Part shown: in pieces, positions 39,191-57,656 of the stretch
Numbering within the stretch: the stretch's first letter is position 1
Layout of the letters: each line of letters opens with the position of its first letter
DNA from: Gammaproteobacteria bacterium
Lineage (GTDB): Bacteria > Pseudomonadota > Gammaproteobacteria > GCA-002705445 > GCA-002716945
Direction: 5' to 3'
Length of the DNA: 64,000 nt
NCBI GenBank assembly: GCA_002716945.1
Contig: PBCF01000002.1
Location: forward strand, 482,374 to 546,373
Notes under the pieces: generated by a model
What the model saw: the letters and a program-made list of their open reading frames with translations, nothing else
Told to the model about the DNA's origin: nothing
Databases searched by the model: none
Made by a program: the position numbers and the translations under genes

Positions 39191-39469
39191 TTGATGATTA
39201 TGAAAAAAATTTCAAGCTTTATACCTAAACATCTTGCTAAAAAAAGCCTATTAATTGGTAAGTTTGAGTCATATATTAATCAAAATTTTCCTAAAGAAAT
39301 TATATCTGAAATTAATGTTATTAATATATCAGGCTCAACACTCATCTTAGGTTGCAAAAAATCTTCATTTGCTACATTAATGCGATTTGAGAAAGACAAA
39401 TATATTCACATTTTGAAAAAAAATGATTTTTTGGATATTGATGATATAAAAATTATAGTTAATACTTAG
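39191..39469 (+). CDS. dciA: DciA (DUF721) family protein
   Basis: Small protein divergent from secA and converging on lpxC (canonical slot); LILGC..SSFAT.MRF; exact start uncertain. Confidence 0.65.
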
Positions 39470-40377
39470 GTTGGTTCTGGGAGTGGCTTGGTATAAAATA
39501 TAGGTGCTTTCGAATCATCCTCAATTATTACTTCTTCCCATGCTTCACTATTATTAATAAGTTCTCTTAAAAGTAAATTATTGAGATGATGTCCTGACTT
39601 GTATGCTGAAAATGAACCTATTATGCCATGTCCAAGTAAATATAAATCTCCAATTGCATCGAGTATTTTATGTTTAACAAATTCATCCTCAAATCTTAAT
39701 CCTTCTTCATTAATCACCCTATAATCATCTATCACAATTGCATTTTTTACACTTCCACCAAGAGCTAAATTGTTCTTTCTTAATTTTTCTATGTCTTTTG
39801 CAAATCCAAAAGTTCTAGCACGACTGACTTGACTGAGATACGATACTGTCGAAAAATCAATTTCAGCAGATTGTGTTTGTTCTGAAAAAGTTGGATGTTT
39901 AAAGTCAATTGTAAAAGCAACTTTGAATCCATCAAAAGGTTCAATTTTTGCCCACTTACTATCTTCTTTTACTTCAATTGATTTTTTTATTTTAATAAAT
40001 TTTTTTGGTTTACTTTGTTCTGTTATTCCTGCGGATTGAATTAAAAAAACAAACGGTCTAGAACTGCCATCTAGTATTGGTACTTCCGGCCCATCCAATT
40101 CTACAACTGCATTGTCGATACCTAATCCCGCCATTGCTGACAACAAGTGTTCAACCGTAGATATTTTTGATTCTCCTTTAGAAATAGAAGTTGACAATCT
40201 TGTATCATGAACATTATTTAATGTAGCAGAAATAGGATCATTATTAATATCTATTCTTTTAAAAACTATTCCAGAATTGATAGTGCCTGGTTTCAAAACT
40301 AAATTAATTTCTTGACCAGTGTGAAGGCCTATTCCGGTTGCTCTAATTGTATTGGATAGTGTTCTCTGTTTTATCAT
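39466..40377 (-). CDS. lpxC: UDP-3-O-acyl-N-acetylglucosamine deacetylase
   Basis: [35 protein letters not shown]. Confidence 0.97.
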
Positions 40378-40481: not shown

Positions 40482-41729
40482 TCAAAGTTCTTTTTGAAAA
40501 TAATTTGATATTTTTTCCCATAATTTATTAACAAACTCTAATATAGAATTTGATGAATTCTGACGATGTGGCATCTTCTTAAGTTGATTTTCCCTGAACA
40601 ATAATAAGCCAACTGCTGTAGCATATCTTGTTTTGCCAGTTAAATTTGTCAAACCTTCTATGTGCGTTGGGCTTCCAATTTTTGCTGGGCATCCAAATTT
40701 ACTTTCAGCATAAGTATCTAAGCCTTCTATCTTTGAACCTCCTCCTGTGAAAACTATTCCGCATCTAATTTTATTTGAATAGCCACTATTGAGAATTACC
40801 TCTTGAATTTTTTTAAATATTTCATCTAGTCTGCAGGATATAATATGTTTTAAAATGGGTTTGCTTGTTTCTGATTCTGGTTTATCAGATACTGATGGTA
40901 CAGGAATTTTAATTTGATCATCATCTGGAGATTCTATTAATGAACCATATTTTTTTTTAATTTCTTCGGCGGCATCTAAAGTTGTAACTAGCCCGACTCT
41001 AATATCATTTGTAATAGATTGACCGGCTAATGGTATTACAGATGTATATTTTATGGTTCCATCTGTAAAAATAGCTATATCAGTTGTTCCTCCCCCAATA
41101 TCAACCAAACAAACACCTAAAGATTTTTCTTCTTCTGTTAAAACTGAATAACTTGAAGCTACAGGCTGCAAAACATATTCATCTACATCAAGAAAACTGT
41201 TTTCTATGCATTTAGTTAGGTTCTTTTTTGCTGTCGATGATGCTGTAATAATATGAACATTCGCGTGTAATTTAGATCCAGCCATATTAAGTGGTTCTTT
41301 AATTCCTTTTTGGTCATCAATTGCATACTCTTGCTCTATAACATGAAGTGTTTCTTGATCAGTAGGAATTTGAACATCTGCTGCTTTATCAATCACATTT
41401 TCTTTATCTTCTTCTGTAACTGTTTCATTAATAATTGTTATTATTGCATTACCATTATAACTTTGTATATGTTTTCCTGAGATACCTGTTGTAACAGATT
41501 TAATTGCAAATTGAGCCATACCAGCAGCAGTATCAGTTGCTCTTTTAATACTCGTTACTGTTGTATCAATTTCGGAAATAACACCTTTATTTAATCCAGA
41601 ACAAGGTTCATCTCCAATTCCAATTATTCTCAACTTACCTTCTGGATTATATTCTGCAACTAGACATAAAACTTTGGTTGTACCAATATCTAGTGCGACA
41701 AATTTTTCATTATTATAGGAATTATTCAC
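40482..41729 (-). CDS. ftsA: Cell division protein FtsA
   Basis: LDIGTTKV, VDIGGGTTD, AEEIKKKYG, VFTGGG, ATAVGLL. Confidence 0.96.
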   Translation of the reverse strand: MNNSYNNEKFVALDIGTTKVLCLVAEYNPEGKLRIIGIGDEPCSGLNKGVISEIDTTVTSIKRATDTAAGMAQFAIKSVTTGISGKHIQSYNGNAIITIINETVTEEDKENVIDKAADVQIPTDQETLHVIEQEYAIDDQKGIKEPLNMAGSKLHANVHIITASSTAKKNLTKCIENSFLDVDEYVLQPVASSYSVLTEEEKSLGVCLVDIGGGTTDIAIFTDGTIKYTSVIPLAGQSITNDIRVGLVTTLDAAEEIKKKYGSLIESPDDDQIKIPVPSVSDKPESETSKPILKHIISCRLDEIFKKIQEVILNSGYSNKIRCGIVFTGGGSKIEGLDTYAESKFGCPAKIGSPTHIEGLTNLTGKTRYATAVGLLLFRENQLKKMPHRQNSSNSILEFVNKLWEKISNYFQKEL

Positions 41730-43284: not shown

Positions 43285-44133
43285 TCAGATAATTCTAATT
43301 TCTTTCTCTAATGTTATACCACACTCTTTTTTTATTTTCTTTTTAACTAAATCTATTAACGCTTCAAGTTCACTACATTTACCTGTCCCATCGTTAATAA
43401 AATAGTTAGAATGTTTTTTTGAAATATAAATACCACCAATTTTAAATGACTTTAATCCAGCTCTTTCTATTAAATTACTTGCTGAGACATGGCTGGAGGG
43501 GTTTTTGAAAATACACCCCGATGACCATTGATTTACAGGTTGACTAGACTTTCTTTGTTGCGCATATTCTAGTAATATTTTTTTATTAAAGACGCTAGAT
43601 TGTCTATATTTGAATGTTGCTTCTATAAAATAAGAATTAGAAGGTGAAAAAGTTTTCCTATATGAGGTTTTAATATCATTGCGTTCATAAGTTTTTATTT
43701 TTCCATACTTGTTTATCATTTTAAATTCTTTAATTTTATCCCATATCTCATTTTTGAATGCACCAGCATTCATAAACATAGAGCCTCCTATAGTTCCAGG
43801 AATACCATGGAGGAATTCAAATCCATTTATCTTATTTTTAAAGAGGAATTTTGCAATTTTTGAACAAGTTACTCCGGCTCCAACTTTTATAAAATTATTT
43901 TCAATAGTTATTCTATTTTTTTCAAACTCATTTAAAATAATTACATGACCATTAAAATTAGTGTCTTTGAAAGCAATATTGGATCCATTACCTATAACAA
44001 TAAAATTTGTTTTGATATTTTTAAGAATATTTTGCAGATCACTAGTATCTTTAGGAAAATAGATTTTTTTTGCAATACCTCCTAAATGAATGGTATTAAA
44101 TTTGGATAGTGGTGAGTTATTTAAAATTTTCAT
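43285..44133 (-). CDS. murB: UDP-N-acetylmuramate dehydrogenase
   Basis: IGNGSN, GIPGTIGG..MNAGA, YR, GCIFKNP, KHSNY, LEKE. Confidence 0.95.
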   Translation of the reverse strand: MKILNNSPLSKFNTIHLGGIAKKIYFPKDTSDLQNILKNIKTNFIVIGNGSNIAFKDTNFNGHVIILNEFEKNRITIENNFIKVGAGVTCSKIAKFLFKNKINGFEFLHGIPGTIGGSMFMNAGAFKNEIWDKIKEFKMINKYGKIKTYERNDIKTSYRKTFSPSNSYFIEATFKYRQSSVFNKKILLEYAQQRKSSQPVNQWSSGCIFKNPSSHVSASNLIERAGLKSFKIGGIYISKKHSNYFINDGTGKCSELEALIDLVKKKIKKECGITLEKEIRII

Positions 44134-48797: not shown

Positions 48798-50135
48798 TTA
48801 TTTATTCTCTGTGTTTATCAATTGCATGACTATATCTTCAAATTTCATAAAACGCGAAGCTTTCACTAAGATATTAACATCTTTATGTAATTTTGTTCTA
48901 ATAAACTCAACAAGTGAATGTTTATCATCAAAACAGTGAACATTATTTCCGAAGGTTTCCTTAACAATTTTTTCAAATTGACCAATATAAAATAACTTTT
49001 CAATCCTAAGTTGTTTCGCATATTTAACAACATCTTGATGAAATTTTTCTGATTCAGATCCAAGTTCACCCATATCACCCATAACAAACCAGTGATTACC
49101 CGCCATTGACGATAAAGAATCTAGAGATCTTTTCATTGAAGAAGGATTTGCATTATAACTATCATCAATAATTATTGAGTTCTTGATTCCATCATACAGA
49201 TAAAATCTTCCTTTTATGCCTTTATAGTTAGTATAACCATCAACTATATTTTGTATAGATGCTCCAGCTTGATGAGAACACGCTACAGCGATAAGAATAT
49301 TTTCTATAAATTTTATATGGTTATCTTTAAGTAATAACTGTAACAATTGATTATTTGGTAATTTTATATTTAGTTCATTTCCAATAATACTTTTTATGGA
49401 GTAATCAGCATTATTTTTTATAGAAATTGTTACTAGATTATGATTATTTACAATTTTTTTCCATCTAAGAAAATTTTTATCATCTTTGTTTAAAATAACT
49501 GTTTTAGAAAAACCTTGATCAATTAATATTTCTTCTTTGGTTAGTAAAATATTTTCAAAACTACCAAAACTTTCTATATGAGCTGCCGAGACATTGAGAA
49601 GAGTTACAATTTTAGGATTAACAATTTCACACAAATACTTTATATCATCTTTAACACTTGCTCCCATTTCTAATACGCAATATTTATGATTTGTATTTAA
49701 TTTAAAAATAGATAATGGAACGCCAATATGATTATTAAAATTACCATAATTAGTTAATGCATTCTTATTTTCATTTAATATAGAATGAATTAATTTTGTT
49801 ACTGAAGTTTTACCATTAGTCCCAGTAACTGCAATTGATAATGGGTTCAACTGATTTATGTGTTGCTGTGCAATTTTTCCTAATGCTATCATTGTATTTT
49901 TGACAACAAGCTGAGGTATGTTATCAATTTTTCTTTCTGAGATGATTGCAGATGCACCTTTTGAAATTGCATTATTGATATAATTATGTCCATCGAAATT
50001 ATATCCTTTGATAGCAATAAAAAGATTTCCTGATTCTATTGTTCTTGAATCAATAGATATACCATCAAACTGAGAATCTGAATTAATTAATTCAGCATCT
50101 AATAACTTTTTAAGTTTAGATAAAGAAGATTTCAT
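48798..50135 (-). CDS. murF: UDP-MurNAc-tripeptide--D-Ala-D-Ala ligase
   Basis: TGTNGKTS, NFNNHIGVP, EMGAS, DDSYNANP, GDMGELG, KASR. Confidence 0.95.
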   Translation of the reverse strand: MKSSLSKLKKLLDAELINSDSQFDGISIDSRTIESGNLFIAIKGYNFDGHNYINNAISKGASAIISERKIDNIPQLVVKNTMIALGKIAQQHINQLNPLSIAVTGTNGKTSVTKLIHSILNENKNALTNYGNFNNHIGVPLSIFKLNTNHKYCVLEMGASVKDDIKYLCEIVNPKIVTLLNVSAAHIESFGSFENILLTKEEILIDQGFSKTVILNKDDKNFLRWKKIVNNHNLVTISIKNNADYSIKSIIGNELNIKLPNNQLLQLLLKDNHIKFIENILIAVACSHQAGASIQNIVDGYTNYKGIKGRFYLYDGIKNSIIIDDSYNANPSSMKRSLDSLSSMAGNHWFVMGDMGELGSESEKFHQDVVKYAKQLRIEKLFYIGQFEKIVKETFGNNVHCFDDKHSLVEFIRTKLHKDVNILVKASRFMKFEDIVMQLINTENK

Positions 50136-51529
50136 TTCAAACCTGAATTTAGTATTTTAAAATCATTATGGAGAATATTGCGATTCTTGTACACAATATT
50201 CTTTTCATTACCTTTGCCAGCAATAACAATAAAATCATCCTTGCGGGCTAATGATATAGCTTTATAAATAGCTTTTTTTCTAGATGGAATAACAAAAACT
50301 TTTTTTTCATTTTCTATCCCTTTTTTAATATCATTTAATATTTTCTTAGGATTTTCAGTACGTGGATTATCATCAGTTAAAATAATATAATCAGAAAAGT
50401 TAGATGAGATTTTCCCCATCTCTTTTCTTTTCCAAACATCTCTATCACCACCACACCCAAAAATAGTAATAATTTTACCAGGTTTTAGTGATGAATATTT
50501 ACTAATCTCTTTTAACAGCATTAATAATGAACTAGGAGTATGAGCGTAATCAATTATATAAGTGCCTTTGTTATTAGTTTGTATAAAATGATTTCTGCCA
50601 TTAATGGTTTTCAATTTATTAAATATCTTGAAGATTAATTTAAATGATAATTTATAAATTTTAAGAATTTCGAATGCCACTCTTAAATTATATAAATTTG
50701 AAATTGTAGTAGGTATTTTAATTTTATTTAAATCTATTTCAATATCTGAATTATAGAAATGTCTTTTAGCCTTAGAAGTAATTAATTTCAAATTTTTCAT
50801 ACTTCTAGAACAATCCGCATTAATAAAAATATGTCTTGTTGACATATTCATTAGTCTCATTTTTGCTTTTACATAATTTTGTATCGATTTATGATAATCT
50901 ATATGATCTTGATTAATATTAGTAAGAATTCCTATATCAAATTTTATATTAACTAATCTATCTTGTTCTAATCCTTGTGATGAACATTCAATTAATATTT
51001 TATCAACATGATTTTTTCTAAAATAATTAAAATATTTATATAAGATATCTATTCTTGGGGTTGTATAGTTAGTTGAGTCTAACTTTGGATATATGCCATT
51101 TCCTTCACTAGATATAATTCCTAATTTTTCACCTGTTAACGAGAAACATTGTGCAAGAATATGTAACTGAGAAGTTTTTCCATCTGTACCAGTCACCCCT
51201 ATTATAGGAATTTTCTTCAGAGGTTCATCATAGATACAATTCAAAAAGTTATTATAATTTAACCCAATTTCTTTGATATATAAAATAGGTATATTTCTTA
51301 ATGTATCTAATAATTCTATTTTTGTATCTGTAATTATTGCTTTTGCACCATTTTTGATTGCTTCACATACATATTTAACTTTAACTTTTTTGTCTGTTTT
51401 TATAGATACAAAGACTTTTCCTCTACAATTATTCTTGCTGTGAAAAACAAACATATTATCTAATTTTTTTTTATATAATTTGTTCTCTTGGAGAAATTCA
51501 ATTACTTTTAGAAATATTCTGTCTTTCAT
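50132..51529 (-). CDS. murE: UDP-MurNAc-dipeptide--meso-DAP ligase
   Basis: VTGTDGKTS, TTP, E.SS, DHIDYH, DYAHTP, GCGGDRD, DNPR (meso-DAP specificity). Confidence 0.92.
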   Translation of the reverse strand: MKDRIFLKVIEFLQENKLYKKKLDNMFVFHSKNNCRGKVFVSIKTDKKVKVKYVCEAIKNGAKAIITDTKIELLDTLRNIPILYIKEIGLNYNNFLNCIYDEPLKKIPIIGVTGTDGKTSQLHILAQCFSLTGEKLGIISSEGNGIYPKLDSTNYTTPRIDILYKYFNYFRKNHVDKILIECSSQGLEQDRLVNIKFDIGILTNINQDHIDYHKSIQNYVKAKMRLMNMSTRHIFINADCSRSMKNLKLITSKAKRHFYNSDIEIDLNKIKIPTTISNLYNLRVAFEILKIYKLSFKLIFKIFNKLKTINGRNHFIQTNNKGTYIIDYAHTPSSLLMLLKEISKYSSLKPGKIITIFGCGGDRDVWKRKEMGKISSNFSDYIILTDDNPRTENPKKILNDIKKGIENEKKVFVIPSRKKAIYKAISLARKDDFIVIAGKGNEKNIVYKNRNILHNDFKILNSGLK

Positions 51530-53249
51530 GCTTATCCGGATAAACTTGTAATAAATTTAATGTATGTCCCATAAACTCTTTAAATATTGGAGCGGCGTTC
51601 TTTCCTCCACTAGGTTCAGATACTTTTGGGTTTCTTAGAATAATAACCGAAACAAATTCAGGTTTAGATGCAGGTACAATTCCTACAAACAATACTACAT
51701 ATTTATTATCACTGTATTTGCCGTTCTCAATCATCTTGGCTGTTCCTGTTTTTCCTGCTACTGAATATTTTTCTAATCGTGCTTTTTTAGCCGTCCCATC
51801 ATTAGATACAACATTTGTCATCATTTTTATGATGTTTTTTGAAAGTTCTTTATCTAAAATTTTTTTCTTATGTATTTTATCATTATCTAAATGTTTGAGA
51901 TATGTAAGTTCAATATAATTTCCATAGTTAGCTAAAATTGCATACGCATTTGCAAGATGTAATAAGGTCATATCTAGTCCATAACCATAACTAATGGATG
52001 CATGTTCACTTTTTTCCCAACTTTTATAATGATGTAAATTTCCTTTCTGCTCTCCTGGCAAACCTATGTATAATGACTTGCCAAACTGCAGTTTTTCAAG
52101 ATTATCTGAAATATGTTTTTTATCTAATCCTAAGGCAACTAAAGCTGCACCTACATTGCTTGATTTAGTAATTATTCCTTTTAAGTCTAATTTACCTAAA
52201 TATTTATAATCTTTGATGGTATGTCCGTTAATTTCTAAGAATCCAGGTGCAGTATCAATAACTGAATAATTATCAAAATTTCCAGATTCTAGTGCGGTGT
52301 ATATTATAAATGGCTTCATTGTAGAACCAGGTTCAATAATATCAGTTACAACTTTATTTTTTATTTTTTCACCTTTCATCTCACTTCTATTAGATGGATT
52401 AAAGGATGGATAATTGACCATTGTTATAATTTCGCCAGTAGTATTTTTAATTAATACAAGTGACGCGCTATCTGCATTTGTTTTTTTGACATGTTTCTTT
52501 AAAGTATTATATGCATGTAATTGGATGTATTTATCTAAACTCAAATGTATATCTTGACCAAGTTTTGGAGGTTTAACAATTTCAATAGTTTCAATTTGTC
52601 TGCCAAAATTATCTTTTTTAATTTTTTTTAATCCTTTTATTGGGGTTAAAAGATTATTGTTGGCATATTCTATTCCTTCTTGACCGATATCATCTATATT
52701 AGTAAATCCTATTATATTTGAGAAATAACGACCACCAGGGTATGTTCTATGATACTCGTCTATGAAATAAATTGATGGTAGATTTAATTTTCTAATTTTT
52801 GTAACAATAGAATCTGGTAGTTTTCTTTTTAAATAATATTCTTTTTTGTTTTTATTTATAGTAAATATTTTTTTAAATTTATCTTTTTTTATATTTAATA
52901 AAACTAAAAGAGGTTCATATACTTTTAGATCAATATTTTTTTGTTGATTTATTTCTGAAAAATTAATACATAAAGTTTGTCTAGGTAGACTCATTGCTAA
53001 TATTTCACCATTTCTATCATATATAAAGCCTCTAAAAGTATTTATAGAGCGAAGTTGTGTTTGTCTTTTATTGGCTAGTTTGCTTAGATTAGATTTACAA
53101 AACTTTTGATTCAAAATAAAACAATCTGTATCAAATCCTTGCAAAAGAATTGTTCTGGATAAAATTAAAACAAAGAATATGGAGACAATAGCGTATACAG
53201 TGTATTGCCTCCAAAGGTTATGTTTTTCGTTATTTTTTTGTTTAGTCAG
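51498..53249 (-). CDS. ftsI: Penicillin-binding protein 3 (FtsI), probable CTG start
   Basis: RGFIYDRNG, STMK (SxxK), SSN (SxN), KTG. The frame stays open 35 codons upstream of the track's TTG and encodes the TM anchor. The first plausible start after the in-frame stop (53259-61) is CTG 53249. Identity is near certain, the start less so. Confidence 0.88.
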   Translation of the reverse strand: MTKQKNNEKHNLWRQYTVYAIVSIFFVLILSRTILLQGFDTDCFILNQKFCKSNLSKLANKRQTQLRSINTFRGFIYDRNGEILAMSLPRQTLCINFSEINQQKNIDLKVYEPLLVLLNIKKDKFKKIFTINKNKKEYYLKRKLPDSIVTKIRKLNLPSIYFIDEYHRTYPGGRYFSNIIGFTNIDDIGQEGIEYANNNLLTPIKGLKKIKKDNFGRQIETIEIVKPPKLGQDIHLSLDKYIQLHAYNTLKKHVKKTNADSASLVLIKNTTGEIITMVNYPSFNPSNRSEMKGEKIKNKVVTDIIEPGSTMKPFIIYTALESGNFDNYSVIDTAPGFLEINGHTIKDYKYLGKLDLKGIITKSSNVGAALVALGLDKKHISDNLEKLQFGKSLYIGLPGEQKGNLHHYKSWEKSEHASISYGYGLDMTLLHLANAYAILANYGNYIELTYLKHLDNDKIHKKKILDKELSKNIIKMMTNVVSNDGTAKKARLEKYSVAGKTGTAKMIENGKYSDNKYVVLFVGIVPASKPEFVSVIILRNPKVSEPSGGKNAAPIFKEFMGHTLNLLQVYPDKHERQNISKSN

Positions 53250-54429
53250 CTTGTTGCCTTAAAAAAGCTGGGATGTCGATATTTTCATCTTCATCATCTT
53301 CATCACTATTAACACTTTTTTCAGTATTTAATAAACTAGATTGAGTATTAAAGCTCATCTGAGTTATATTTGGCTTAACTACAGCTTGCTCAACAGAGTT
53401 TATTGGTGTTTGTGCATCAATATTCGTGTTATCTGCTGAACCAAGACTACTATTGACTGTATTGATATTAGTACCCTCATCAAATCCAGTAGCAATAATT
53501 GTGACTCTCAACTCGCCAAGATTATCCTCTTCTTTAATACATCCTGTGATGATTGTTGCTTCTTCATCAGCAATATCTTTAATCTTACGTCCAATTAGAT
53601 TTAGCTCTTTCGGAGTTAAATCATCTCCAGAAGTTATATTTACAAGAACTCCTGTAGCACCTTGAAGATTAAAACTATCAAGTAATGGACAACTTAGTGC
53701 AGCGTTGATGGCATCTTCAGCTCTATTTTCTCCTTCTGCTTTTGCTGAACCCATCATGGCTTTACCTTTTCCTGACATTACTGTTTTTACATCCGCAAAA
53801 TCTACATTCATAAATCCACGAATTGTTATAATTTCAGCAATTCCTTTTACAGCTCCAGTAATGACACCATCAGCATTATCAAACTGAGAGTAAATTGAAC
53901 CATTTTCACCAAAGACTTCCATTAATTTAGTATTAGGAATTACAATTAAAGAATCTACCCATTCTTCAAGATTAACAATACCAACCTCAGCATGCTCCAT
54001 TCTTTCCTTGCCTTCCCATTCAAATGGTTTAGTTACAACCGCAACAGTTAGAATTCCTAGATCTCGTGCAATTTGTGCAATAATAGGTGCTGCACCAGTT
54101 CCAGTTCCGCCGCCCATTCCTGCTGCTATAAATAGCATGTCTGCTCCTTCTATGGTTTTTTGGAGTTGTTCCTTTGATTCAAGCGCTGCTTGTCTTCCTT
54201 TTTCTGGATCTGCACCTGCACCAAGACCATTTGTTATTTCGCTACCAATTTGAACAGTGGTTGCTCCATCAATATCTCTAAGTGCTTGTGCATCAGTATT
54301 TGCAACTATAAAGTCCGCTCCATGTATTGTATCTCTGAGCATTGTATCAACAGCATTGCCGCCAGCTCCTCCAACACCAATAACTTTGATAATTGCGTTT
54401 TGACTGTAATTATCTACTATTTCAAACAT
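53242..54429 (-). CDS. ftsZ: Cell division protein FtsZ
   Basis: GVGGAGGNA, NTD.QAL, GGGTGTG, NVDFADV, C-terminal DIPAFLRQQAD; GGAGGT SD 8 nt upstream. Confidence 0.98.
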   Translation of the reverse strand: MFEIVDNYSQNAIIKVIGVGGAGGNAVDTMLRDTIHGADFIVANTDAQALRDIDGATTVQIGSEITNGLGAGADPEKGRQAALESKEQLQKTIEGADMLFIAAGMGGGTGTGAAPIIAQIARDLGILTVAVVTKPFEWEGKERMEHAEVGIVNLEEWVDSLIVIPNTKLMEVFGENGSIYSQFDNADGVITGAVKGIAEIITIRGFMNVDFADVKTVMSGKGKAMMGSAKAEGENRAEDAINAALSCPLLDSFNLQGATGVLVNITSGDDLTPKELNLIGRKIKDIADEEATIITGCIKEEDNLGELRVTIIATGFDEGTNINTVNSSLGSADNTNIDAQTPINSVEQAVVKPNITQMSFNTQSSLLNTEKSVNSDEDDEDENIDIPAFLRQQAD

Positions 54430-54431
54430 GA

Positions 54432-54716
54432 TTAAATACCTCCGTTAGAAGTCGTTAAATTTAAATAAATAATTTTATTTTTACTAGGAATATCCATCCC
54501 TAAAGTTTCTTTATAACTTTTGTAGCTCAATTTTTTCTCATAATTTGATTTGATATCAAGTAATTTTTTATGTTGATTTAATTTTACTGATAGTGATTTT
54601 TCTTTTTTTTCTAATCCAATATTCATAAGTCTATTTTGATACTTAAGATATATTACTGAAAATGCAGAAAGTGATAATACTAGCATAATGAACAAATTAA
54701 TTGATATTTTCATCAT
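54432..54716 (-). CDS. ftsL: Cell division protein FtsL (divergent)
   Basis: Short N-terminus, TM helix, coiled coil, LGM..P motif; follows rsmH. Confidence 0.75.
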   Translation of the reverse strand: MMKISINLFIMLVLSLSAFSVIYLKYQNRLMNIGLEKKEKSLSVKLNQHKKLLDIKSNYEKKLSYKSYKETLGMDIPSKNKIIYLNLTTSNGGI

Positions 54717-55635
54717 TTTTCTCCAGTATATTCAATTTTGCTGATCTAGATCTTGGATTGGCAGAAATTTCTTCGTTTGATGGTTTTATTGATTTTGAGA
54801 TAATATTAAACATTTTAGATAAAAAAGATTTATCTAGAGGTAAATCTTTTGGTGCAGAAAGATTTGTATCAGTATAAGTTATAAAATCTTTAATTACTCT
54901 ATCTTCAAGCGAATGGTAAGTAATTAAAACTAATCTGCCTTTAGGGGCTAATACCTGATATGATTTTTCTAAAGCATTTTTCAATACTTCTAATTCTTGG
55001 TTGATATAAATTCGTATAGCTTGGAAAGTTCGAGTTGCATTGTGTTTATTTTTATCATTTTTTGGAACAGATTGATTTATGATGTTAACTAAATCATGTG
55101 TGTTTTCAATTTTATTAGATTTTCTAAATGATATTATTTTTTTAGCTATCTTATTTGCATATCTTTCTTGTCCAAATTTCTTTATAACATTTCTTAATTG
55201 CTCTTCACTAACTTCTGATATCCACTCTCTAGCTGGGGATCCACTATTCTGATCAAATCTCATATCAAGAGGGCCGTCATTTTTAAAACTAAAGCCTCTT
55301 TTTGGGTTATCTAGATGTTCAGATGAAACACCTAAATCAAATAAGATTCCATTCACAGAACCATGAATTCCCCAGTCTTTAGTTATTACGTCTAGGGAAG
55401 AGAAACATCCGTGTTTAAGAGTAAATCTTTTATCACTTAAAGTATTCTTGTTTGCATTTTTTATAGCATCAAAGTCTTTTTCAATGGAATATAACTTACC
55501 ATCATTATTTAAATAATTTAGTATCTCTTGTGAATGTCCACCAGATCCAAATGTTGTATCTATATAGATACCAGACTTTTTAACGCAAAGCGCTTGTATT
55601 GATTCTTCTTTCATAACTGGAATATGATTTATCAT
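54697..55635 (-). CDS. rsmH: 16S rRNA m4C1402 methyltransferase
   Basis: HIPVM, D.TFGSGGHS, DLGVSS, PLDMR, FQAIRIYIN.E, YHSLEDR, NPRSRSAKL. Confidence 0.97.
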   Translation of the reverse strand: MINHIPVMKEESIQALCVKKSGIYIDTTFGSGGHSQEILNYLNNDGKLYSIEKDFDAIKNANKNTLSDKRFTLKHGCFSSLDVITKDWGIHGSVNGILFDLGVSSEHLDNPKRGFSFKNDGPLDMRFDQNSGSPAREWISEVSEEQLRNVIKKFGQERYANKIAKKIISFRKSNKIENTHDLVNIINQSVPKNDKNKHNATRTFQAIRIYINQELEVLKNALEKSYQVLAPKGRLVLITYHSLEDRVIKDFITYTDTNLSAPKDLPLDKSFLSKMFNIISKSIKPSNEEISANPRSRSAKLNILEKNDENIN

Positions 55636-55832
55636 CCTGTTAGCTTTTTAAATTTCATTATGTTGTCGTAAGCTTCTCTAGCTTCAATAAATCTTTGATT
55701 AGAATCCAAGTCATTACTTGTCTTGTCAGGATGATGCTTTAAGGCAACTTTAATAAATGCTCTTTTAATTTTACTTAAATCTTCGTTTCCTTTAATATCA
55801 AGTATTTTATAACATTGGGTTAAATTCATCAT
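55632..55832 (-). CDS. Stand-alone J-domain (DnaJ-domain) protein, 66 aa
   Basis: YKILDI..IKRAF...LKHHPDK...F...REAY J-domain with intact HPD; ATGA overlaps with both neighbours. Confidence 0.85.
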   Translation of the reverse strand: MMNLTQCYKILDIKGNEDLSKIKRAFIKVALKHHPDKTSNDLDSNQRFIEAREAYDNIMKFKKLTG

Positions 55833-56281
55833 ATACGTACATCTCCCAAAACTGATTCTTCGTTTTCATCAGTTTCTTCAGTTTTCCATTTAGAGACTTG
55901 GCTTTGCCACAGATCATCATTCCAAATTTCAAATTTTTCACCTTGGCCAATTAAAGTCACTTTCTTAACTAAATCTGCAGAGTTTCTTAGAGGTTTAGAA
56001 ATCAAAATTCTACCATTATTGTCCATTACTACATCTTCAGCATGGCCAACTAATAACCTTTGAATTCTTCTAGCATTTTTATTAAATGAAGGTAAGTTGT
56101 TGATTCTTTTCTGTATTTCATTCCATATTTGTAATGTGTAAAGCAATAAACACTTTTCTTCAGTATCTATGGTGATAACCATATTACCATTGACTTGGTT
56201 GGTTATAACTTCCCTAAATTTTGTAGGAATCGCTAAACGACCTTTTGTATCTAAATTAATGTTATGGATACCCTTAAACAT
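55829..56281 (-). CDS. mraZ: Division/cell wall cluster transcriptional repressor MraZ
   Basis: MFKG...LDTKGRLAIP and DNNGRILI twin motifs, G.GEKFEIW; start at ATG 56281. Confidence 0.96.
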   Translation of the reverse strand: MFKGIHNINLDTKGRLAIPTKFREVITNQVNGNMVITIDTEEKCLLLYTLQIWNEIQKRINNLPSFNKNARRIQRLLVGHAEDVVMDNNGRILISKPLRNSADLVKKVTLIGQGEKFEIWNDDLWQSQVSKWKTEETDENEESVLGDVRI

Positions 56282-56330
56282 ATTAACCACTATTTCCCAT
56301 AATTTAACAAAAATTACCATATTTCAACAC
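56281..56330 (-). promoter_or_regulatory. MraZ operator: five degenerate direct repeats with 10-bp period
   Basis: Minus strand GTGTTGAAAT/ATGGTAATTT/TTGTTAAATT/ATGGGAAATA/GTGGTTAATA directly before the ATG; resembles the TGGGN/GTGG boxes bound by MraZ. Confidence 0.7.
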
Positions 56331-56357
56331 TATATGCTTTTTATTTAGAATATGCAA
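56329..56357 (-). promoter_or_regulatory. Sigma70 promoter of the dcw operon
   Basis: TTGCAT-N17-TATAGT; the -10 overlaps the first MraZ repeat. Confidence 0.65.
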
Positions 56358-56467
56358 GGTTTATAAGCTTTTTATGCGGTCTAATATGTTGTTTTTTATA
56401 GAAAAATAATGGAATAGTTATATAAAACATATATTTATAAGAGGTTTGAAGAATTCTTATATGGATG

Positions 56468-56805
56468 AGAGAGTCGATCTATAAGCCGGGTTCTGTCAAA
56501 GTACAGTTATTTATCTAGGATATATGTCACCATATACCTCAAGCAGCAACCACATAGCAAGTCATGGGTAAACATATGCTATAAATTTGCCTTGCTCCGA
56601 GTGGGGTTTACTTAACCGTATGAGTTACCTCGATACGTGGTAAGCTCTTACCTTACCTTTTCACCCTTACCTTAATATTAAGGCGGTTCTTTTCTGTAGC
56701 ACTTTCCGTGGATTCGCATCCCCCAGGTATTACCTGGCACTCTTGCCCATAGGAGCCCGGACTTTCCTCTATATTTATATATAGCAACCGTACGATCGGC
56801 TCTCT
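56468..56805 (-). ncRNA. rnpB: RNase P RNA, bacterial type A (about 338 nt)
   Basis: GAGGAAAGTCCGGGCTC and ACAGAACCCGGCTTAT conserved regions; P1 AGAGAGCCGATC/GATCGACTCTCT; canonical position upstream of mraZ. Confidence 0.96.
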
Positions 56806-56812
56806 AAAAAGA

Positions 56813-56840
56813 ATTATACTAAATTGTTATCACCTGTAAA
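56813..56840 (-). promoter_or_regulatory. rnpB promoter
   Basis: TTTACA-N16-TATAAT ending 7 nt before the P1 5' end. Confidence 0.65.
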
Positions 56841-56849
56841 TGATTCTTT

Positions 56850-57656
56850 TTATTTTAATGCTACTATATACCCTATCCAACCAGCATCAGCATCGCATTT
56901 TTTTACGCTATAAAATTTATCACTCTCTTCATTTTTTTTCTTATCCCAACCCTGCATATATATATCAACTTGTTTAAATCCAACCTCCTTTAAACATTCT
57001 GTAATCTCTGGTAAAGACCATAACCTCCAGTCATACCTAAATGCTTTCTTAATCTTAGATCCATTATTAAATTCAAAATGAATATAGCAGGTCATATGGT
57101 TGTTAATTGGATTAAACTTATTTTGATCCCAAACATAGGTAAAATGTTTATGTTTGGTTTTTTCCTCAAGTTCTTGATGCGCTTCATATCCTCCAAATGC
57201 ATCTAAAATAAAAATTCCATTTTTTTTTAAATTTTTAAGGGAATTTAAAAAGTATTTCTTCAAAGTATGTCTTTCTTTAAAAACCCAATAACTGAAATTG
57301 GTAGCTAAAACACAATTTACCTTTTTATTTTTTTTGTTCAAAGAATCCCCTTGTATTAAAAATAATCTATTTAATTGTTCTGTTGATATTCTTTTCTTAG
57401 CTTTAGTCAAAGCTATTTTTAGTACATTCTTATCAATATCAATAGCATATGCTTTTTTATTTTTAGTTTTGACCCATTCTGTAGATATAAATGCAGAAGA
57501 ACAAAAATCTTCCCTAATATCTAAACAATTTCCTCTATTGTTCTTCTTAAACATTTTATTAATAAATTCAACTTCAAATTCAACTGATTGAACAGATTTT
57601 TCATAAAGATCATATATATCAGCGTTCTTAGCTGTTAGTGTGTATTTTCTCTTCAT
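56850..57656 (-). CDS. Class I SAM-dependent methyltransferase, unknown substrate
   Basis: YEKSVQ, REDFC, AIDID, GD, NFSYW, YDWRLWSLPE. Confidence 0.75.
   Translation of the reverse strand: MKRKYTLTAKNADIYDLYEKSVQSVEFEVEFINKMFKKNNRGNCLDIREDFCSSAFISTEWVKTKNKKAYAIDIDKNVLKIALTKAKKRISTEQLNRLFLIQGDSLNKKNKKVNCVLATNFSYWVFKERHTLKKYFLNSLKNLKKNGIFILDAFGGYEAHQELEEKTKHKHFTYVWDQNKFNPINNHMTCYIHFEFNNGSKIKKAFRYDWRLWSLPEITECLKEVGFKQVDIYMQGWDKKKNEESDKFYSVKKCDADAGWIGYIVALK

Follow-up and report, generated by a model that had tools for sequence, protein, structure and literature searches.

The infC gene, encoding translation factor IF3, is a conserved gene without an AUG, GUG or UUG start; it begins at AUU, a near-cognate codon that is read by the ordinary initiator tRNA with low output, and against which IF3 discriminates in a known feedback loop. 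The four near-cognates CUG, AUU, AUC and AUA each give ~1-2% of AUG initiation in E. coli (bioRxiv 10.1101/063800), and NCBI table 11 counts CTG, ATT, ATC and ATA among starts. Termination-reinitiation coupling has been described at overlapping stop/start pairs such as ATGA and TGATG (Huber et al. 2019, PMC6728339; review PMC12548453), in co-directional genes with the start within a few nucleotides of the stop, a weak or absent SD sequence and a conserved junction; the pairs described use AUG or GUG and usually serve the equal stoichiometry of complex subunits. Stable stem-loops followed by a T-rich stretch also occur soon after the stop of highly expressed operon genes, both as internal operon attenuators and as the 'ribosome termination structure' (RTS) downstream of stop codons (Chemla et al. 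2020, PMC7518266).

The canonical proteobacterial dcw cluster has the order mraZ-rsmH-ftsL-ftsI-murE-...-ftsQ-ftsA-ftsZ-lpxC. In E. coli, FtsZ outnumbers FtsI by about two orders of magnitude, a ratio normally governed by separate promoters and by where the genes lie. The window analysed here – a stretch of 64,000 nucleotides from a gammaproteobacterium belonging to a family of tiny-genome marine bacteria – shares the core gene set and usual order of this cluster, but ftsZ has moved from behind ftsA to a position between ftsL and ftsI, with ftsI directly behind it, and a small J-domain gene lies between mraZ and rsmH. The relocation of ftsZ that had been supposed earlier is thus real: ftsA lies elsewhere (40482..41729), and is followed by a 303-aa ORF (39466..40377). 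The genes found in the cluster did not include murC. A literature search returned no description of the ftsZ-ftsI junction or of an ftsZ relocation.

The original prediction was that ftsI of this window starts at a non-canonical CTG embedded in the end of ftsZ, and that this weak start, coupled to ftsZ termination, throttles PBP3. Here, we examine the junction in the window and in the family, and weigh the ways in which it might be read. Its features, all on the reverse strand, are as follows.

53242..54429, reverse strand: ftsZ coding sequence, 395 aa; matches TIGR00065 at 384.6 bits, above the cut-off
53242..53244, reverse strand: ftsZ stop codon TAA
53257..53261, reverse strand: TAAGG, whose TAA bounds the open ftsI frame on its upstream side; also SD-like (UAAGG), 7 nt before the CTG
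51498..53249, reverse strand: ftsI (PBP3) coding sequence as proposed, 583 aa from the CTG
53247..53249, reverse strand: CTG, the proposed ftsI start and the only good near-cognate before the transmembrane (TM) helix in the window
53214..53246, reverse strand: spacer codons rich in Lys and Asn (TKQKNNEKHNL), which would give FtsI a short cytoplasmic tail
53157..53204, reverse strand: FtsI TM helix codons (YTVYAIVSIFFVLILS), flanked by WRQ and R-TILLQ
53142..53144, reverse strand: TTG, the first canonical start, lying after the TM helix; the expected choice of a gene caller, giving an ORF of 51498..53144 and 548 aa

The ftsI frame is open from the in-frame TAA (53261-53259) and reads GGC AAC AAG CTG ACT AAA CAA AAA AAT AAC GAA AAA CAT AAC CTT TGG AGG CAA TAC and onward to CTT TTG CAA at the first canonical start. 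As predicted, there is no ATG, GTG or TTG in this frame between that TAA and the TTG, and the stretch upstream of the TTG encodes GNKLTKQKNNEKHNLWRQYTVYAIVSIFFVLILSRTILLQ, including the TM segment. Single-base variants of ATG before the helix are limited to the CTG at codon 4 and a very poor AAG at codon 3, of which only the CTG is plausible as a start; ATT 53189 and ATA 53180 fall within the helix codons. The predicted length of 583 aa from the CTG, and the TAAGG 7 nt before it, are confirmed by the translation and the sequence. The 3′ end of ftsZ is TTT TTA AGG CAA CAA GCT GAC TAA (DIPAFLRQQAD*), and the CTG is formed inside its last two sense codons, from GCT-G(AC), 2 nt before the stop (CTGACTAA); a start here overlaps the end of ftsZ by 8 nt. 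At its other end, ftsI overlaps the murE ATG (51529) by 32 nt. In contrast to ftsI, ftsZ initiates at an ATG with its own strong GGAGG 9 nt upstream. A promoter scan gave 39 sites against 48.7 in shuffles and lends no support to an ftsZ-specific promoter.

The ftsI product is divergent and AT-biased in sequence. It carries all of the active-site motifs expected of a transpeptidase (STMK, SSN and KTG/KTGT, for SxxK, SxN and KTG) and matches FtsI chains in the PDB at E 1e-95 (phmmer), the matches stopping short of the TM region; most solved chains are truncated. The curated NCBIfam cut-offs for FtsI are not reached (PRK15105, 357.6 bits against 737; PenA, 389 against 1105), and the gene is assigned as ftsI from its best hit, from its dcw position before murE, and because PBP2-like genes exist separately elsewhere. 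Both the FtsI and PenA models align from residue 12-14 of the 583-aa protein and thus cover the helix, and the pattern of WR, ~17 hydrophobic residues and R-x3-LQ is common to the N-termini of outgroup FtsI. This homology and model coverage argue that the helix must be translated. The codons for the anchor, WRQ-YTVYAIVSIFFVLILS-R, precede the first canonical start, and the anchor is retained only if translation starts at or near the CTG. From what is established for class B PBPs, a PBP3 lacking an anchor or signal would be unable to get to the periplasm.

We compared the junction in 32 family genomes that have it, representing six genera (here g1 to g6), and in 48 distinct marine metagenome variants. 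The gene for FtsZ directly precedes ftsI in all 32 genomes and all 48 variants, and a canonical start before the helix is absent from 27 of the genomes and 36 of the variants. The same arrangement in so many independent sequences rules out the sequencing error that the original prediction had thought improbable. Three frame relations between ftsZ and ftsI occur in the family: +1, as in the window, 0, and +2 in genome L104. In the +1 type, 24/28 genomes carry CTG, as do 44/44 metagenome variants; the remaining four genomes have ATT as the next codon, such that either CTG or ATT stands at the ftsZ stop in 28/28. In g5 and g6, this ATT overlaps the ftsZ stop. For genus g3, where ftsI occupies a different frame, ATT, ATC, ATA or ATG lies within six codons (3-15 nt) after the ftsZ stop. 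The CTG, whose conservation had been proposed as a check, is thus not what the family conserves: it is missing from four same-frame genomes and replaced in g3.

Two further considerations bear on the CTG. GCT accounts for 40% of Ala codons genome-wide and 34% in ftsZ, and the Ala of PAF in the same FtsZ C-terminal motif is likewise GCT in 17 of 22 genomes compared; GCT at the last FtsZ Ala is thus a weak sign of selection for CTG, and we do not use it as one. The presence of CTG alone is no proof of selection, because it is a by-product of the conserved FtsZ Ala-Asp codons, with GCT common. A near-cognate somewhere among 13 AT-rich codons is expected by chance in ~90% of cases, as estimated from base composition.

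The spacer between the ftsZ stop and the hairpin in the first ftsI codons (described below) is informative. No stop interrupts it in the ftsI frame in any of the 32 genomes, whereas stops occur in 18/32 and 28/32 genomes in the other two frames. Spacer lengths in the +1 group are 22, 25, 28 and 31 nt, differing only by multiples of three, and steps of three hold within each frame group. The spacer is probably translated, and its lengths point to translation starting at its 5′ end. The FtsI N-terminal peptide predicted from a CTG start is (M)TKQKNNEKHNLWR.

The SD-like UAAGG, which may help initiation at the CTG, has an ambiguous standing. It is built from the FtsZ codons TTA AGG, of which AGG is the only one among the ten Arg codons of ftsZ and makes up 9.6% of Arg codons genome-wide, an atypical choice that speaks in favour of a signal here. 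The AGG is nonetheless kept in 22/22 genomes of genera g1-g4 and g6, but g5 has AGA. Because AAGG is absent from g5, and is retained in g3 although the start there is ~18 nt away and too distant, a role as an SD is doubtful.

A second element, which the original prediction overlooked, lies within the first codons of ftsI.

53180..53213, reverse strand: RNA hairpin in ftsI codons 16-27 (WRQY...IVSI): TGGAGGCAATA, a 12-nt loop, TATTGTCTCCA
53160..53179, reverse strand: T-rich tail after the hairpin (TATTCTTTGTTTTAATTTTA), which also codes for part of the TM helix

The stem is 11 bp (four G-C pairs and one G-U), begins 28 nt downstream of the ftsZ stop, and the 66-nt segment of the window that bears it folds at a dG of ~-17 kcal/mol. 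A corresponding hairpin folds in 32/32 family genomes (dG -15 to -26 kcal/mol, z -3.7 to -7.2), and its arms covary: pairing holds in 91.8% of cells, where shuffles give 74% and slid positions 35-58%, double changes are seen in 8 of 11 pairs, and the observed score is reached by 0/500 shuffles. Outgroup ftsI genes have no such hairpin. A simple scan for terminators across 50000-57500 passed over it, as that scan accepts loops of up to 8 nt and this one has 12. Stems of at least 10 bp with G-U allowed are not rare, with 68 sense-strand cases inside genes genome-wide; this count does not single out the ftsI hairpin, and the argument for it is the covariation and the absence from outgroups. The tail of the window, TATTCTTTGTTT, has 7 T in its first 10 bases and is interrupted, and T-richness is also expected from TM-helix codons; a clean T7-T8 run follows the hairpin in g3, g6 and part of g5. 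Display of the start codon in the hairpin loop was considered as a general rule and rejected, since the window and g4 have no near-cognate there. The hairpin is probably an attenuator or a ribosome barrier. Like described attenuators and RTSs, it is a stable stem-loop soon after the stop of a highly expressed operon gene, with a T-rich stretch behind it. It differs from them in lying inside the membrane-helix codons of the next gene, with arms that covary while encoding protein; the 12-nt loop and the interrupted T-tract of the window are further differences from attenuators, and the RTS signal is strongest at the edge of the ribosome, and a distance of 28 nt lies beyond that.

The original prediction had also overlooked that this genome has near-cognate starts in further genes. 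A start-codon screen showed that trxB starts at ATC, queD at ATA, and a nuclease at ATC/ATA; all of the others found are ATH and none is CTG. Most matches in this screen were false positives, reflecting conserved 5′ leaders and SD regions for which the two genomes share the position of the ATG; the screen also recovered the genuine prfB frameshift. An unusual initiator tRNA or loss of IF3 does not lie behind the relaxed start choice, as tRNA-fMet is normal (CAU anticodon, GGG/CCC stem) and infC is present, itself keeping its ATT start. With IF3 present and a normal initiator tRNA, a near-cognate start should be weak.

On the best reading, which we consider somewhat more likely than not, ftsI starts weakly at the CTG, coupled to ftsZ termination. 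The CTG would be read as fMet by the ordinary initiator tRNA, and most ribosomes initiating there would probably come straight from termination on ftsZ, in a termination-reinitiation event possibly helped by the UAAGG. FtsI would in that case be made in a small, fixed proportion to FtsZ, and the hairpin would provide a second step-down, acting perhaps through partial intrinsic termination, perhaps as a barrier confining post-termination ribosomes. Use of CTG, ATT, ATC or ATA in the family fits such a throttle, each being a poor initiator in E. coli. Of the original prediction, the need for a non-canonical start at the ftsZ stop stands; for the throttle, which it attributes to the weak start, the covarying hairpin is an equally good or better candidate. 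The gene resembles infC in being conserved yet devoid of AUG, GUG and UUG, but it encodes an essential septal transpeptidase, its candidate start codon varies by genus (CTG, ATT, ATC, ATA), and that codon overlaps the stop of the upstream gene instead of following a strong SD. With described coupled pairs it shares the co-directional genes, the close start and stop (8-nt overlap) and the conserved junction; it departs from them in its putative near-cognate restart codon and in a presumed large step-down from an abundant to a scarce protein.

A further reading of the same elements, which we regard as unlikely, is that the junction is a translation-gated terminator inside the gene. RNA polymerase would meet the hairpin and T-tract ~70 nt after the ftsZ stop, and transcription would run on only when a rare restart on CTG or ATT places a ribosome closely behind that melts the hairpin, so that ftsI-murE-murF and the rest are transcribed; the arrangement would postdate the shift of ftsZ to the cluster's front. 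If so, a single weak codon would set both FtsI translation and transcription of the downstream cell-wall operon as a fixed fraction of FtsZ.

Also unlikely is a start inside or just before the helix codons, at ATT 53189 or ATA 53180 in the window and at ATG, ATA or TTG beside the W in g2, which would leave a very short N-terminus, no Lys-rich tail and an untranslated spacer. ATG or TTG does occur 0-5 codons before the W in 5/32 genomes and 12 g2-like metagenome variants, where sister strains have ATA at the same codon, and ATH starts are used by other genes of the genome. The original prediction had named relatives with ATG as evidence against it; some g2 relatives indeed have ATG or TTG just before the helix, which counts in part against the prediction, and the true start in this g2-like subclade may lie there, whereas most family genomes have none. 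However, ATT 53189 and ATA 53180 sit in the 3′ arm of the hairpin and would leave only ~10-13 hydrophobic residues, too short for a TM anchor; the window, L005, L010, L013, L087 and others lack such a codon before the W; and the stop-free spacer with its 3n length steps would go unexplained.

It is very improbable that the TTG at 53144, although the first canonical start, is the true one, with the upstream stretch being intergenic and holding an ordinary ftsZ terminator. The strength of its stem and its distance from a stop codon do liken the hairpin to the ~25 terminator-like hairpins that lie between genes in this genome. Yet the TTG position is not kept as a start in relatives, with L005 and L010 lacking any canonical start within ~50 codons, the frame upstream is open in 32/32 genomes, and it encodes a conserved WR-TM-R..LLQGF segment homologous to FtsI N-termini; the resulting 548-aa protein would be an anchorless FtsI.

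We give still less credence to recoding at the ftsZ stop – a +1 frameshift here and readthrough in g3 – to yield an FtsZ-FtsI fusion, whether as the source of FtsI or as a membrane tether for FtsZ. The frame of ftsI does stay open right to the ftsZ stop, and in g3 the genes share a frame with a single stop between them, but the three frame relations in the family would demand three recoding mechanisms. Furthermore, GAC/GAT to ACU/AUU permits no tRNA-Asp re-pairing and there is no slippery site; a second in-frame stop follows ftsZ in g2, g4, g5 and g6 (TAA TAA or TAG TAA) and three codons on in the window. As a membrane tether the fusion was rejected on these grounds of varying frame and tandem stops, and because the normal tether, FtsA, is above the cut-off in 29/31 family genomes.

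An assembly or sequencing error, or a decaying ftsI pseudogene, has a negligible chance of being the explanation: the assembly of this AT-rich genome is a draft (6 contigs, 4.7% contamination) and the spacer has an A7 run, but the structure recurs in the independent genomes and metagenome contigs, and the 583-codon frame is intact with its active-site motifs, at 48-79% identity across the family, where most copies lack internal stops.

These findings have consequences for how such genomes are read. In an entire family of uncultured marine bacteria that are abundant, gene callers that admit only ATG, GTG and TTG will cut ftsI short at TTG 53144, losing the anchor, or label it a pseudogene. Genes such as trxB and queD will likewise be misannotated, and annotations and metabolic reconstructions of these genomes need to allow for near-cognate starts. 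The junction also offers a simple, portable test system for post-termination restart on near-cognate codons and for the role of structures after stop codons. For the bacteria themselves, the probable CTG start and the hairpin together are likely to hold FtsI at a much lower level than FtsZ; some ~110 nt, protein-coding at the same time, seem to contain the whole step-down, which would be a compact natural case of very unequal stoichiometry within an operon.

The dcw order here is mraZ, a 66-aa J-domain gene, rsmH, ftsL, ftsZ, ftsI, murE and murF. Because ftsA is located far off and ftsZ lies between ftsL and ftsI, ftsZ has been relocated, as the original prediction assumed. At the ftsZ start (54427-54445, minus strand) a perfect GGAGG precedes the ATG by 9 nt, and the ATG is 2 nt past the ftsL stop; this site is strong and independent, quite unlike that of ftsI. 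Elsewhere in the cluster, the ORF flanked by the presumed murG and ddl (43285-44133, minus strand) is only 282 aa and murB-sized, and no murC-sized ORF was seen.

Features of the window
55632-55832, minus strand: J-domain-only gene of 66 aa, flanked by mraZ and rsmH at the start of the dcw cluster (NCBIfam matches are to the DnaJ N-terminus)
54429-53242, minus strand: ftsZ (TIGR00065, 384.6 bits)
53213-53180, minus strand: hairpin in ftsI codons 16-27, TGGAGGCAATA, 12-nt loop, TATTGTCTCCA
40482-41729: ftsA, then a 303-aa ORF at 39466-40377

On the minus strand of the window ftsZ ends TTT TTA AGG CAA CAA GCT GAC TAA. The ftsI frame is +1 relative to ftsZ and is closed upstream by the TAA at 53261-53259, after which it reads GGC AAC AAG CTG ACT AAA CAA AAA AAT AAC GAA AAA CAT AAC CTT TGG AGG CAA TAC ... 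CTT TTG CAA. The factual statements behind the prediction that ftsI begins at a CTG within the ftsZ 3′ end were all correct: the earliest ATG, GTG or TTG of the frame is TTG 53144, downstream of the helix segment WRQ-YTVYAIVSIFFVLILS-RTILLQ, and the only good near-cognate codon (a single-base variant of ATG) upstream of the helix is CTG 53249-53247, with TAAGG 7 nt 5′ of it. A small stem in the MFE fold (CAGCTT...AAGCTG, 53247-53270, minus strand) would place UAAGG in its loop and pair the CTG; it is probably incidental, being formed by two AGCT palindromes and not kept in relatives with CCT GCT.

The genome (1.09 Mb, about 29% G+C, six contigs) belongs to a family of 37 species genomes in six genera (g1-g6), all of about 1 Mb, the named relatives being single-cell genomes of uncultured marine gammaproteobacteria. 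The ftsZ-ftsI junction is readable in 32 genomes, in all of which ftsZ is directly 5′ of ftsI, and 27 of which have no ATG, GTG or TTG ahead of the helix. A metagenome pattern scan that left the Ala third base free yielded 60 loci and 48 distinct junctions, comprising 44 in the +1 frame, three g3-like, and one with a third frame relation. Conservation of the CTG among relatives of the same gene order is extensive and incomplete: it is formed by FtsZ GCT-GAY codons in 24 of the 28 genomes with +1-frame ftsI and is present in all 44 +1-frame metagenome junctions, but the remaining four genomes have GCA or GCC, followed in each by ATT overlapping GAT-TAA. Genus g3 also departs, with ftsI in ftsZ's own frame past a single TAG or TAA, and either ATT/ATC-ATA at codons 2-3 or ATG at codon 6. 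In the g3-like junction L104 (metagenome contig CEVQ01357057.1) the 29-nt spacer gives ftsI the third frame relation to ftsZ, and ATT/ATC/ATA follow the stop. The start in this clade is downstream of the ftsZ stop and does not overlap it. The assembly also contains another ftsZ (45-46% identity) and a PBP gene (30-31% identity), near-duplicated between its small contigs C2 (12080-13039; 21827-23464) and C6 (11740-12696; 1300-2958), which probably come from another organism and account for the assembly's 4.7% contamination.

Between the ftsZ stop and the hairpin the ftsI frame has no stop codon in any of the 32 genomes, whereas the other two frames have stops in 18 and 28. Spacers are 22, 25, 28 or 31 nt in the +1 group and 27 or 30 nt in g3, differing within each frame group only by multiples of three. 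Together these place the start at the spacer 5′ end, at the ftsZ stop. Initiation within or beside the helix is unlikely; ATG or TTG does occur zero to five codons ahead of the W in 12 of the 48 metagenome junctions, all of one g2-like subclade, with no canonical start before the helix in the other 36. Less probable still is the annotated TTG start: PBP3 begun at TTG 53144 would lack its membrane anchor, and the NCBIfam FtsI and PenA models begin aligning at residue 12-14 of the CTG-started protein. The upstream segment has the pattern common to outgroup FtsI proteins with ATG starts (WR, about 17 hydrophobic residues, R-x3-LQ). The protein retains its catalytic motifs (STMK, SSN and KTG) and matches solved FtsI structures with E about 1e-95. 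An FtsZ-FtsI fusion through recoding is scarcely credible and was rejected in view of the three frame relations, the lack of a re-pairing site, the tandem stops past ftsZ and the presence of FtsA. The chance of sequencing error or a pseudogene is negligible; error, already thought unlikely in the prediction, is excluded by the recurrence of the same junction among the 32 genomes and 48 metagenome variants, most of them without a canonical start before the helix.

CUG, AUU, AUC and AUA make up the near-cognate class that in E. coli initiates at about 1-2% of AUG (bioRxiv 10.1101/063800), and the junction codons across the family are exactly this class. The FtsZ codons forming the signals are atypical: AGG represents 9.6% of Arg codons genome-wide and just one of ftsZ's ten, and GAC 14% of Asp codons. 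The AGG is kept in 22 of 22 genomes of five genera (g5 has AGA), which suggests a nucleotide-level constraint, e.g. an SD-like UAAGG, although an SD role is uncertain because g3 retains AGG with a start too distant for it. The CTG alone is weak evidence of selection, since GCT is common (40%). The last FtsZ codon (53245-53247, minus strand; sites in relatives' junctions L005-L013, L019 and L085-L091) is the rare GAC in 14 of 14 genomes and 35 metagenome variants without the ATT fallback, a retention that the start codon itself does not explain. As infC is present (its ATT start retained, with AGGAGA ahead) and the initiator tRNA is ordinary, near-cognate starts should, like those of E. coli, be weak and sensitive to IF3.

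Across all 32 genomes the folding energy of the 66-nt segment containing the hairpin is -15 to -26 kcal/mol (z -3.7 to -7.2 versus dinucleotide shuffles). Its arms vary by genus (GGAGACAAT/ATTGTCTCC, GGCGGCAAT/ATTGCCGCC, GAGACGATCA/TGATCGTCTC and GGCTGCTGTTAT/ATAACAGCAGCC), with accompanying changes in the encoded amino acids. In an alignment anchored on codons and without gaps, 91.8% of cells are paired, compared with 74% in shuffles and 35-58% with the partner slid; both sides change in 8 of 11 pairs, and none of 500 shuffles reached the observed covariation. RNAalifold gave further evidence of covariation. Outgroup ftsI, in its normal position after ftsL, is unstructured at the corresponding codons (z -0.7 to +0.6), which ties the hairpin to the ftsZ-ftsI junction. 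It is similar to the genome's 25 or so intergenic terminator-like hairpins in how strong its stem is and how far it lies from a stop codon. In g3, g6 and part of g5 the hairpin leads into a clean run of T7-T8, which in the window is interrupted (TATTCTTTGTTT), T-richness here being expected anyway from helix codons. From these sequence features, we give roughly even chances to the ftsI-embedded hairpin acting as a partial terminator downstream of ftsZ; alternatively, it may be a barrier to post-termination ribosomes, of the ribosome termination structure kind (PMC7518266). The two roles are mutually compatible.

The junction reading is well supported by these sequence comparisons. We propose that ftsZ would be translated efficiently from its GGAGG-ATG, with termination at TAA 53244-53242, and that a small fraction of ribosomes would restart 2 nt 5′ of the stop (P site -2 nt) on CTG with fMet-tRNA, giving an FtsI of 583 aa that includes a Lys-rich tail of 15 residues and the TM anchor. 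The hairpin would further lower downstream expression, and FtsI would be expected at roughly a percent of FtsZ. The E. coli FtsI:FtsZ ratio is of the same order, roughly a percent. SD-independent restart and 70S or 30S scanning are both accepted as mechanisms yet still unsettled (PMC12548453); the coupled restarts described there include no case with a near-cognate restart codon, unlike the CTG proposed here. The ingredients are known individually (starts at near-cognate codons, restart by coupling, and attenuators or structures downstream of stop codons), and our literature search found no description of the ftsZ-ftsI junction or the ftsZ relocation.

All stop-to-stop frames of the genome (G000) were screened against 761 kb of a genus-g2 genome, recovering the prfB frameshift and infC ATT start as positive controls and also flagging many conserved 5′ leaders that are false positives.

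Loci from the start-codon screen
G000:C4:261041-262076 and C4:255511-256041, plus strand: prfB (programmed +1 frameshift kept) and infC (ATT start kept)
G000:C4:478146-479112 (plus strand, 3.3 kb before the window) and C4:608074-608458 (plus strand): two of the loci of the start-less gene set, which over all its loci includes trxB, queD, nuclease, transporter, permease and membrane protein
C4 near 459511, 433666 and 115336, and C1 near 18818, minus strand: further loci of the same start-less set

In trxB an ATC, with GGAGAA 6 nt upstream, aligns with the relative's ATG; PRK10262 spans residues 3-314, and the earliest canonical start is residue 64. For queD the codon is ATA, TIGR03367 spans residues 4-95 and the earliest canonical start is residue 26, as in the relative. 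A secreted nuclease has 103 residues without a canonical start, and a sodium-dependent transporter, a SulP-like permease and a small membrane protein probably also have conserved N-termini upstream of their canonical starts. Among these, ftsI is the lineage's CTG example and the one whose conservation at a gene junction extends across the family. Near-cognate ATH starts thus seem to be used by roughly 1% of this lineage's genes, and near-cognate-start genes are expected to be truncated by standard gene callers.
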